Source of the DNA: a virus
Taxonomy: Duplodnaviria > Heunggongvirae > Uroviricota > Caudoviricetes
Direction: 5' to 3' (one strand)
IMG/VR virus record: IMGVR_UViG_2703719365_000003
Length of the DNA stretch: 6,085 nucleotides
Part shown: one piece after another, positions 3,001 to 6,085 of the stretch
Position numbering within the stretch: the first letter of the stretch is position 1
How the letters are laid out: each line of letters starts with the position of its first letter
Made by a program: the position numbers

Positions 3001-6000
3001 GATGTATGGGGTAACCAATGCGGCACACCATCCATTGAGATGGTTCCGGGTATTGTTAAATTTCTGGAGAAAACCAATGAGCGAAAAAACGACGTTGACA
3101 AAGGCATCACCAGTTGAATTAAGGCAGTGTCTGGAAATCGCAAATCAACTTGCCAGAAGTGGAATACGATTTGTTCCAATCCCGATTACAGCAGATGCAG
3201 AACTTCATCTGTTTGGTGAAATTCTTTCCCGAAAGCTGGATGAACTGGAAAAGCTGGTAGAAGAAGCTGACACCTCACTAACCGTATAACAGCCCCACCG
3301 ACATTAAAATATCAGGAGAAAAAAATGAACGCAGTGCTCACAGAATTGAACAAATTAGGAAAAGCATCAGCCGAAAGTATTTCTAAAGGTCTCAATATTG
3401 ATTTGAATGACGTTATTGACACTCTATGGAAGTTAAAAAACCAGGGGGTAGTAACTGTAAAAAATGGCATCTGGCAGGCAGTTGCAAGGGAAGTGGACAA
3501 AAAACCAAATATCGCCCCAGTGCAGCCAGTGCAGCCAGTGCAGCCAGTGCAGCCAGTGCAGCCAGTGCAGCCAGTGCAGCACAACATTATAGGTGACCTG
3601 CTACGTAAATCACGGAAAGAAGCGCGCCGCGCCGGGCGGAAACAGAAACGATGGGAGGGTGCATGTAAGGCGTTGCAAGAACTGAATAAATACCGTGACT
3701 TGATCAACGAATTGTCAGAGTGAGCGAATCACAGAGAGAATATTTTGAGAAACAACCCGCGTACATTAATATTGTTTTTCCTTTCTCTAATGACGGGCGG
3801 TATCCTGTTATTCGCAGGAACAACATTATTTATTTTTGTTGCCCGGCTAACTGCGAGGATAATGACATGAAAATCACATTTGAAAGTTACGGTTTAACAG
3901 CAAGTGTGGTTATCTCCAGCTCTATATTCGAAAGCCGCAAACATCAGCATATCGTTGATGCAGTGAAACTCAAAGCCCCGGAAGTTACCGTCACAACACA
4001 TGGACTTTTCAGGATACGAACGACGTTGACTACAACACACCTCTCGGCATGCCGTGTTTATGATATGGCACTCAAGGAATACAACCAGTGTTCGTCCTGA
4101 TCCAGCGCGGGCAGTCTTTCGTTGATGCCAACAACTATCCGGTAGAAATATGCAAGGTAACTCTGACTCAGGTGATCTACCGAAGGCTCGACGGCAGAAC
4201 CAGAGCCACTTCAATTGGTGCATTTAATGAAGAATTTGAGCGAATAGAGCACAACGAACTGCATATGATTAAAGCGGAAATTGAGAAGGAAAAGCATATT
4301 GCCAGCCTTCGAAAAATGCGCCGTACATCAATCAACTAACAACCGCCTTCGGGCGGTTTATTATGCTGTTGAAAAACATGTAGAAAAGGAGAGCATACTA
4401 TGGAAATCAACTTAATGACCGAAAAAGAAGTTTCTGAGTTGTTACAAAAAAGGCGCACAGCTTTGTATAATTTGCGAAAAAAACACGGATTCCCTGATCC
4501 AGTACTTACTCATCCGGCGCGATATAGCCGTCAGGCCGTTGAACAATGGCTTAAATCCGGAGGAATTAACCGAGCTGTTTAGCGTGCCAGAAAATTTTAT
4601 CAGCATACAACTCATACGCATCTTTCTGTTCCGACAACCAGTCGTGTTTATTATACACGGCCATCACTCCTCCCAGTTCATGCCCCAGCATTTTTTCAGT
4701 GACGTGGGGCATAATTCCTTCCCCAGATAAATTCGTTACCAGAGAACGCCTAAAATCATGCGTTCTCCATTCAGGAATATCAATTTTCGCCCTGAGTTTT
4801 TTCATGTACAAATTAGCAGACGAACGGTCAATAGGTTTATCTATTTCCTGCCCAGGGAACAGCACATCAAATCCGATATTAAGCAATCGTTCAATATAAG
4901 GCTCAACCTGAGTAAATATCGGACGCCGGATAATATTACCCATCTTTGAATGCTCTTTAGGGGTTGTCCAGACCAGATCTTCCATGTTGAACTCACTGGC
5001 TGTAGCGAGACGTAGCTCAGAAAGCCTGGCCCCCCATAGCAATAGCAATTGATGTAACAGCTTGTTGGAAGTAACCACTTTTGAGTTCTCCAGTGCCAGC
5101 CAGATCTTTGCCAGTTCCGTATAGGTAAGTACGCGACTCCCCACATCTGGTTTCTTCCCAATATTCTTTACACTAAGTTTGAGTAATTCGCATGATGGGA
5201 TTAACTGGCGGCTGATACACCAGTTAATAACTGAACGCAGTTGTAACAACAGAACACGAGCCTTTTTCTTGTTGAGGCTTTCTTGCTTGTCAAAAAAGCG
5301 AACCCAAGCCGATACAGGGATACCGGCAACTGGCGAGTCTTCAAACTGTGTGTACATAGTGTTGTACACAACAGATCTATAAAGCGTCTGAGTATTGGGT
5401 TTCAGGCCGCTAACATACTTATCCCACCACTGATCCAGGCATTCTTTTAATGTCAATTCGCCATCACTGGGGGCAAAATAATTTTTAGGGTTAACTCCCT
5501 TCATGTACAATGCGCGCATCTCACCGACGATAACACGTGCGTCCTTCAGTGAAGTGGACGGATAGCGCCCGACAGTAAGACGTACTGGCTTACCATTCCA
5601 GCGATAACGGTACTGAAACGTGATAGTTCCTGCTGGAGTAATCCGCACACTTAACCCGTCACCATCGGTGATTTCAGCAGGGCCAGAGTAGGGTTTTCCG
5701 TATAGGCCTCGTAGTTTGGTGTCACTCAGTGCCAATGCTTTATATCCTGTACACAAGGTTATAATGTATTCTGTACTCAATATGTACGCATTAGCAAGTG
5801 AACAAAACACTTTTCAACGCAAAAGAAGATAATCAACCATGAACAAAAACGAACTTACACCTTGATTTTAAAACCATAAAGACGGTATTATCAGTCATAT
5901 GGTGAACAACCAAAATCAATACGCAACAACGTCCTCTTAGTTAAATGGATATAACGAGCCCCTCCTAAGGGCTAATTGCAGGTTCGATTCCTGCAGGGGA

Positions 6001-6085
6001 CACCATTTATCAGTTCGCCTCCATCCGTACCAGTCCGCAAAATCCCCTGAATATCAAGCTGAACCGCCCCGGAAATCCTGGAGAC

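Follow-up and report, generated by a model that had tools for sequence, protein, structure and literature searches.

Why should the integrase gene of a mobile element lie on the 5' side of a tRNA gene and be transcribed away from it, when classical tRNA-targeting elements use the 3' end? The question is raised by a 6,085-nucleotide stretch of Caudoviricetes DNA (IMG/VR record IMGVR_UViG_2703719365_000003; the whole stretch is called the window here), in which the gene for a tyrosine integrase (int) diverges from argW, a gene for tRNA-Arg(CCU). A preliminary description, made from the sequence alone, had called this geometry atypical and had offered three accounts of it: an attachment site between the two genes, a tRNA carried by the element, or occupation of the tRNA 3' end by a second element. 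The coordinates bear out the arrangement, with a gap of 195 bp (5736-5930) between the genes and all other genes of the window on the 5' side of the tRNA; its rarity is borne out by the Islander database, in which islands with a 5' fragment of a tRNA gene (tDNA) make up only 159 of 3919. Our analysis indicates that the window is, with very high probability, the int-proximal (right) end of a Phi24B-type lambdoid Shiga toxin (Stx) prophage inserted in the 5' end of argW. The unusual order of the genes is genuine, and its explanation is already known: this is a Phi24B-type module at the documented argW site.

The evidence comes from an empty site, a lysogen, and a free phage. In the empty yfdC-argW-intS site of Escherichia coli K-12, homology to the window is confined to the segment from tRNA base +1 (5931) through 6059; the similarity starts exactly at +1, and the 195 bp at 5736-5930 are phage DNA. 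In E. coli O157:H7 strain 7.1_Anguil, a prophage of ~62 kb carrying Stx2a sits between yfdC and argW. Its far (left) junction, at ~11025-11048 of locus L003, reads from native yfdC-argW intergenic DNA through GTCCTCTTAGTTAAATGGATATAA into phage DNA, and its near (right) junction, at argW, reads from phage DNA into the complete tRNA, both on the + strand; from these junction sequences the direct repeat is tRNA positions 1-24. A displaced 5' fragment of the tRNA therefore lies upstream of the element in the orientation of the intact gene, the hallmark of a 5'-fragment tDNA island. The classical 3'-end pattern does not apply, as the identity block is positions 1-24, the element is upstream, and the displaced piece is a 5' fragment. 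In the genome of free Phi24B, read across the ends of the record, the int-proximal P arm leads into the same 24 bp and then into unrelated P' sequence, so the phage bears the first 24 nt of argW and not the tRNA gene; in the record of phage AU5Stx1, exactly these 24 bp are annotated as the phage attachment site (attP).

The 24-bp core is thus common to attP of Phi24B and AU5Stx1, to both O157 prophage junctions, and to the bacterial attachment site (attB) of K-12. It covers the acceptor stem's 5' strand along with the D arm, and it bounds the crossover to positions 1-24, position 25 being T in P' and C in the tRNA. The comparison with a genome lacking the insertion, proposed in the preliminary description as the way to find the repeat, has in this way (K-12 empty site and O157 lysogen) given tRNA positions 1-24; the repeat at the far end is the 5' 24 nt of argW and does not come from a different tRNA, the outcome that was to have overturned that description. 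Within the window, the core occurs once (no second copy was found with up to three mismatches) and the tRNA 3' end has no second copy, so the other boundary lies outside it, as had been supposed. Two points weigh against our assignment: the far junction, being outside the window, is taken from related genomes and not from the source genome, and the points of strand exchange are known only to within the 24 bp, which are identical in E. coli and make attL/attR differences uninformative for the crossover point.

The entire window is ~97% identical to lambdoid Stx prophages of E. coli strains that make Shiga toxin (STEC). Its counterpart in strain 7.1_Anguil is the early-left end of the Stx2a prophage, followed by tRNA-Arg, intS, and P22-like remnants. 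Nucleotide identity to phage vB_EcoP_24B (Phi24B) reaches 99.7% over int-xis and the P arm/junction segment; the integrase (Int) agrees with that of Phi24B at 387 of 389 residues, and the excisionase (Xis) at 60 of 60. In Phi24B, int is inverted relative to lambda, has its own promoter and a TTG start, and a 60-residue open reading frame (ORF) encodes the excisionase (PMC3064807). The window has the same inversion, the same start codon, and a small helix-turn-helix (HTH) Xis whose gene (xis) is convergent with int and overlaps its 3' end by 17 bp. Int contains the Pfam domains Arm-DNA-bind_3 (DUF4102; E-value 3.7e-17) and Phage_integrase (1.6e-17). R237, K264, R329, and Y361 do not vary among 20 homologs, and H326 and H352 hardly do; these six are candidate catalytic residues, and the combination of arm-binding and catalytic domains with R-K-H-R-H-Y is that of P4-type tyrosine recombinases. 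The longest ORF for int (4566-5810, minus strand) reaches a GTG at 5810; this start, that of a 1245-bp ORF, belongs to a discredited first annotation and was set aside for the TTG at 5735, in keeping with the RefSeq and Phi24B annotation and with experiment (PMC3064807).

Recombination by Phi24B Int and Xis, with integration between attP and attB and Xis-dependent excision, has been demonstrated experimentally (PMC3064807, PMC7581858), and from the near identity of the two systems we infer the same activities for the window copy. The Phi24B crossover site is 24 bp long; the minimal attP is 350-427 bp, the minimal attB is 93 bp (49 bp of B arm, 24 bp of core, and 20 bp of B' arm), and recombination is independent of integration host factor (IHF) (PMC7581858). 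The words tRNA and argW are absent from both Phi24B recombination papers (PMC3064807, PMC7581858). STEC genomics papers name the site 'argW', with a 24-bp att, and one STEC paper gives 'argW' and 'intS' as separate sites; because the core lies ~210-235 bp upstream of intS in K-12, we infer that these are one locus. The Phi24B system and the STEC argW site share with the window their Int, Xis, core, P arm, inverted int, TTG start, and yfdC-argW location. The module is essentially without difference from that of Phi24B, and the leftward cargo is slightly different, the window having a tandem pair of antirepressor-like (Ant-like) genes.

The arrangement is widespread. Of 5426 complete E. coli genomes, 209 have the junction of P arm and argW. 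Int homologs were collected across Enterobacterales, one genome being scanned per species, which gave 45 loci; at all 26 loci of other Enterobacterales that yielded a tRNA (their Int sharing 67-90% identity with the query), ARAGORN calls it tRNA-Arg(CCU); it diverges from int, and in locus coordinates its 5' end lies upstream of the int start by 173-196 bp. A homolog from Klebsiella pneumoniae is 85% identical to the window Int. Three further loci have an Int within this identity range (76-81%), two of them short of upstream sequence and the third from Erwinia typographi. The Erwinia contig (NZ_JRUQ01000067.1; ~2740-3010 of its locus, L013) runs from int through a P arm and the core GTCTCCTTAGTTAAATGGATATAG into non-tRNA DNA, an attP-like arrangement that suggests an excised, circular, or tandem form in the assembly.

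The tRNA call, for which confirmation had been sought, is upheld by ARAGORN and Rfam (Table 1). ARAGORN finds this single tRNA in the window, identical to K-12 argW, and all 21 pairs of the cloverleaf form in each of 27 orthologous copies (100% pairing). Three acceptor-stem pairs show compensatory double changes between the 5' strand, on the element side, and the 3' strand, on the host side, among the 27 tRNAs. Since every acceptor stem pairs and covaries, each element fits the tRNA of its host and regenerates an intact gene. The argW of the window is a chimera: its 5' part, up to a crossover within positions 1-24, is phage-derived, and the remainder is host DNA. No terminator was found near the tRNA.

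With these comparisons in hand, the three earlier accounts can be weighed. Placing the attachment site in the intergenic region, with the tRNA a mere neighbour, accords with the adjacency of Int to 5736-5930 and with the lack of any repeat visible inside the window. That region is, however, phage DNA throughout and missing from the K-12 empty site, the duplication at the prophage ends is tRNA 1-24, and the free phage carries those 24 nt, so that this account is refuted and retains practically no probability. Carriage of the tRNA gene as cargo might be supposed from its fixed distance to the integrase at the 26 other loci, and from the tRNA genes that Stx phages bear elsewhere. Here the idea was right for 24 nucleotides and wrong for the gene: free Phi24B has the first 24 nt and then unrelated P' sequence, the Erwinia typographi contig passes from P arm and core into non-tRNA DNA, and K-12 has argW at the same position with no phage. 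The cargo reading is refuted in its turn, and we give it scarcely any weight.

The suggestion of a second element at the tRNA 3' end was correct as to its presence. K-12 annotation starts the element CPS-53 at tRNA position 61, the window carries the left end of such a CPS-53/KplE1-type element from that position to 6059, and intS follows the tRNA in O157 7.1_Anguil. It fails, however, as an account of the integrase: CPS-53 has its own IntS, unrelated apart from 29% identity over the N-terminal 93 residues only, and the window integrase is contiguous with Stx-phage early genes and the phage P arm. That int belongs to this second element, or owes its position to it, is accordingly very improbable. 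The window equals K-12 and O157 through 6059, save for a two-base difference from K-12 just past the tRNA, and K-12 similarity stops there. The 26 nt at 6060-6085 match sites in Stx phages that precede two-ORF 'mobile element protein' units by ~80 bp; the junction at 6060 was found in none of the 5426 complete E. coli genomes.

Insertion of a Phi24B-type phage into the tRNA 5' end is best described as follows. In attP, the P arm adjoins int and is followed by a core whose 24 bp equal tRNA positions 1-24, and then by a P' arm; recombination with attB by Int puts the entire phage into the interval from yfdC to argW. To the far junction, ~62 kb away, it displaces the native argW promoter together with a 24-nt 5' fragment of the tRNA. 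At the near junction, phage DNA is joined to the rest of the tRNA, giving an intact chimeric gene whose upstream region and first bases are supplied by the phage. The int gene is transcribed inward from its own promoter in the P arm, with xis at the end of the pL operon and convergent with it; an outward sigma70 promoter in the P arm (TTGATT-N18-TATTAT) would transcribe the regenerated tRNA with a leader of ~33 nt. Entry into the 5' part of the tRNA is the mirror image of classical 3'-end integration, and puts int upstream of the tRNA and divergent from it. The junctions, the core, the content of attP, and the conservation of the geometry come from the present comparisons; the recombination activity, the 24-bp crossover site, the int promoter (pInt), and the function of Xis were established by others for the near-identical Phi24B.

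The outward promoter is the least settled of these steps. Phylogenetic footprinting was done on an alignment of 27 diverged P arms with few indels, in which most columns have diverged and islands are invariant or nearly so; these include an invariant A5857, GCAAGTGAAC at 5794-5803, TTGAT at 5862-5866, and GAACA near 5904-5908. Within the candidate argW promoter (predicted transcription start near 5898), TTG at 5862-5864, G5884, TA at 5886-5887, and T5891 are invariant, and A5890 is 93% conserved; the hexamer spacing is fixed, with zero indels, and the flanking columns are mostly ~30-70% conserved. With int divergent, there is no other co-directional promoter for the tRNA, which leads to the proposal that the phage supplies one. 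We consider it probable, on this footprint, that the conserved TTGAT-N18-TAnnAT of the phage arm is an outward sigma70-like promoter that transcribes the regenerated argW. Two observations count against it. The promoter scan alone is not above chance (2 sites against 1.2 expected), for which reason reliance is placed on the footprinting; and on the opposite strand the conserved CTTGAT with A5857 could equally make an IHF-like ATCAAGnnTTT, yet Phi24B recombination is reported to be IHF-independent (PMC7581858). A literature search found no paper discussing promoter supply at the argW site or by elements upstream of a tRNA.

It is possible, though distinctly less likely than a promoter, that the TTGAT and TAnnAT blocks bind recombination proteins (an IHF-like protein, Xis, or Int at arm-type sites), and that argW is silent or weak in lysogens, which would tolerate this because tRNA-Arg(UCU), from argU and phage-borne Arg tRNA genes, can read AGG. 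The minus-strand ATCAAGnnTTT resembles the IHF consensus WATCAANNNNTTR quoted in PMC7581858, and binding there would explain the invariant A5857; the 350-427 bp of the minimal attP imply that the whole P arm is needed for recombination (PMC7581858), and the prophage has Arg tRNA genes of its own. Against this, the conservation pattern, in which T-A-x-x-A-T has TTG exactly 18 nt upstream of it and an invariant G at two bases upstream, matches a sigma70 -10/-35 signature facing the tRNA, and IHF is dispensable for Phi24B recombination (PMC7581858). Identity to the tRNA begins exactly at +1 and the acceptor stem covaries with the host, which argues for selection on tRNA function, and a divergent int leaves no alternative co-directional source of a promoter.

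If the promoter is accepted, a further step may be imagined: the element promoter, with an AT-rich discriminator, would replace a native one with a GC-rich discriminator (CATGCCG), and in lysogens this would uncouple the sole tRNA-Arg(CCU) gene from growth-rate or stringent control, with the orphaned native promoter driving a transcript of the 24-nt fragment and P' arm. We regard this as speculative and rather unlikely; if true, the reading of AGG codons, or the expression of phage and host genes, could be affected in either way. At ~100 nt from the core, the P' arm has a GC-rich hairpin, GCATGCCCCGCACTTCCGTACGGGGCATG, with TTCTTT after it (O157 far junction, ~11050-11170 of locus L003; Phi24B, 1560-1640 of locus L005). 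As the orphaned argW promoter points toward this hairpin, a short transcript of the tRNA 5' fragment and P' arm is conceivable in the lysogen.

Other motifs of the P arm are conserved as well. In Phi24B, 5' rapid amplification of cDNA ends placed the int transcription start 46 bp downstream of the codon at which the 1245-bp ORF was formerly taken to begin (PMC3064807), which counted from the GTG at 5810 is near 5764 in the window. The hexamers proposed for pInt are consistent with this published start, and their -35 region (GCAAGTGAAC) is 85-100% conserved per column at the 27 loci. The pentamer TGTAC is 96-100% conserved at 5748-5752, 5772-5776, and 5783-5787, and these repeats may be arm-type Int sites or other (auto)regulatory sites. 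Copies 1 and 3 of the direct repeat GTGAACAA/TGAACAAAA are conserved across the family, and the three copies may be bound by a recombination protein. The inverted repeat TTATATCC / GGATATAA, 8 nt long (5740-5747 and 5947-5954), pairs the int-proximal end of the P arm with the 8 nt that end the core; as its P-arm copy shows only moderate conservation, the match may be due to chance.

Table 1. Attachment site, genes, and candidate control sequences at the int-argW end of the window
Feature	Position	Strand	Remarks
xis	4400..4582	+	60-residue HTH excisionase; Pfam HTH_17; ends the leftward early operon
int	4566..5735	-	P4-type tyrosine integrase, 389 residues; TTG start at 5735
P arm of attP	5736..5930		Phage side of the int-proximal junction; not in the K-12 empty site; adjoins the core in free Phi24B
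TGTAC-centred motif, three copies	5743-5756, 5767-5780, 5781-5792		Direct repeat analysis (14-mers); overlaps the int promoter and 5' untranslated region
Candidate pInt	5768..5797	-	-35 TTGCTA (5797-5792), 18-nt spacer, -10 CAGAAT (5773-5768), transcription start near 5764
GTGAACAA/TGAACAAAA, three direct copies	5798-5807, 5840-5848, 5902-5909		Repeat analysis
Candidate sigma70 promoter for argW	5862..5891	+	Promoter scan; -35 TTGATT (5862-5867), 18-nt spacer, -10 TATTAT (5886-5891)
Attachment core, GTCCTCTTAGTTAAATGGATATAA	5931..5954	+	24 bp; tRNA positions 1-24
argW, tRNA-Arg(CCU)	5931..6005	+	ARAGORN tRNA-Arg(CCT); Rfam tRNA, 63.4 bits (gathering score 29)
Separate CPS-53/KplE1-type element, left end	5991..6059	+	Uses the argW 3' end; does not belong to the Stx phage
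IS3-family (IS629-like) insertion sequence, terminal inverted repeat	6060..6085		Cuts the downstream element; 54 bp downstream of argW

Elements that integrate into tRNA genes have reportedly been sorted into sublocation classes (Williams, 2002). Like the classical 3'-end elements (P4, KplE1/CPS-53 with IntS, and HK620, among others), the Stx prophage has an arm-binding tyrosine integrase, regenerates the gene from a tRNA fragment in attP, and has int next to the regenerated tRNA. Unlike them, it has an identity block that extends from the crossover to the tRNA 5' end, it lies upstream and must supply the promoter, and the displaced 5' fragment retains the native one. CPS-53 IntS uses the opposite end of the very same gene, and is only a distant relative of the window Int. 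Use of the 5' end has also been described in Klebsiella, where integrase clade I.d targets the 5' end of tDNA arg2 (the acceptor stem's 5' half, with D stem and D loop), called a novel 'D-loop' sublocation, and where some strains are occupied at both ends of an Arg tDNA (bioRxiv 10.1101/2020.11.02.365908). The window resembles clade I.d in having its element upstream of the tRNA, with a second element at the 3' end as in some of those strains. It differs in host genus and cargo, these being genomic islands and prophages in Klebsiella and an Stx phage here. Use of the tDNA 5' end is therefore already on record in databases and the Klebsiella study, and the phenomenon is documented experimentally and bioinformatically; new here are only the explicit link between the Phi24B core and tRNA positions 1-24, the geometry across the family including its sbcB sister clades, and the conserved candidate promoter.

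In the sister clades, the integrases are 53-64% identical to that of the window (among them those of a large E. coli clade and Orbaceae) and have no tRNA nearby; int diverges from sbcB (exonuclease I) and lies ~180 bp upstream. Alignment with K-12 shows a new start codon and ~11 codons, MTDTDKQPTFLF, coming from the element as far as a conserved TTTCACGATTAC, and the sbcB promoter region is replaced too (loci L036, 2700-3010; L044, 2740-3010; and L033; compared with 4640-4880 of K-12 locus L052). Judged by eye, the sister-clade alignment upstream of sbcB is not dependable enough to sustain a candidate promoter for that gene. The sbcB site of Stx prophages, with a 12-bp att, is already known from the STEC literature. 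These prophages (Stx2c/Stx1) share with the window the divergent int, P-arm motifs (the GTAC triplet and a CAAGTGAAC-like motif), and the provision of a new target 5' end; they differ in targeting a protein-coding gene, at its 5' end, and not a tRNA. Because the argW and sbcB clades both lie upstream and replace the 5' end of their target, this habit appears to be a trait of the integrase lineage. The sbcB and argW cores, which lie similarly far from int, are somewhat alike in sequence (TTAcTTccATGATTA versus TTAgTTaaATGGATA), and this hints at site switching by drift.

In the left part of the window, tandem AntA/AntB-like antirepressor ORFs (448-1116 and ~1372-2007) are each directly preceded by an Rfam match to sRNA-Xcc1 (RF02221) on the + strand (347-436 and 1243-1331; scores of 65.4 and 69.5 bits, with gathering at 53). 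The module is duplicated in tandem (466-979 and 1360-1870), with copies 74-81% identical and a spacing of ~891-894 bp. Close relatives such as O157 7.1_Anguil have a single Ant-like copy, and for this reason span only ~95% of the window. Farther right, a perfect 9-bp tandem repeat, CCAGTGCAG, present in 7.1 copies at 3517-3580, encodes a (PVQ)n tract in an ORF of the DUF1627 family (3325-3723). The ORF is 399 bp long in the window and 381 bp (18 bp less) in the O157 7.1_Anguil homologue, and the number of CCAGTGCAG copies may differ between phages.

These results leave the current understanding of site-specific recombination unchanged, and bear instead on how a known site is read. The primary attB of Phi24B appears to be a single locus with the 'intS' and 'argW' sites used in STEC typing: the first 24 nt of tRNA-Arg(CCU). 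The 'unusually long, asymmetric attB' of Phi24B can be reframed accordingly, its B arm being the native tRNA promoter region and its core and B' arm together tRNA positions 1-44. For annotation pipelines, an integrase upstream of a tRNA and divergent from it can mark a genuine tRNA-targeting element, and the two ends of a single tRNA gene can be occupied simultaneously. For the bacteria that carry such prophages, all lysogens would express argW, if at all, from phage DNA.

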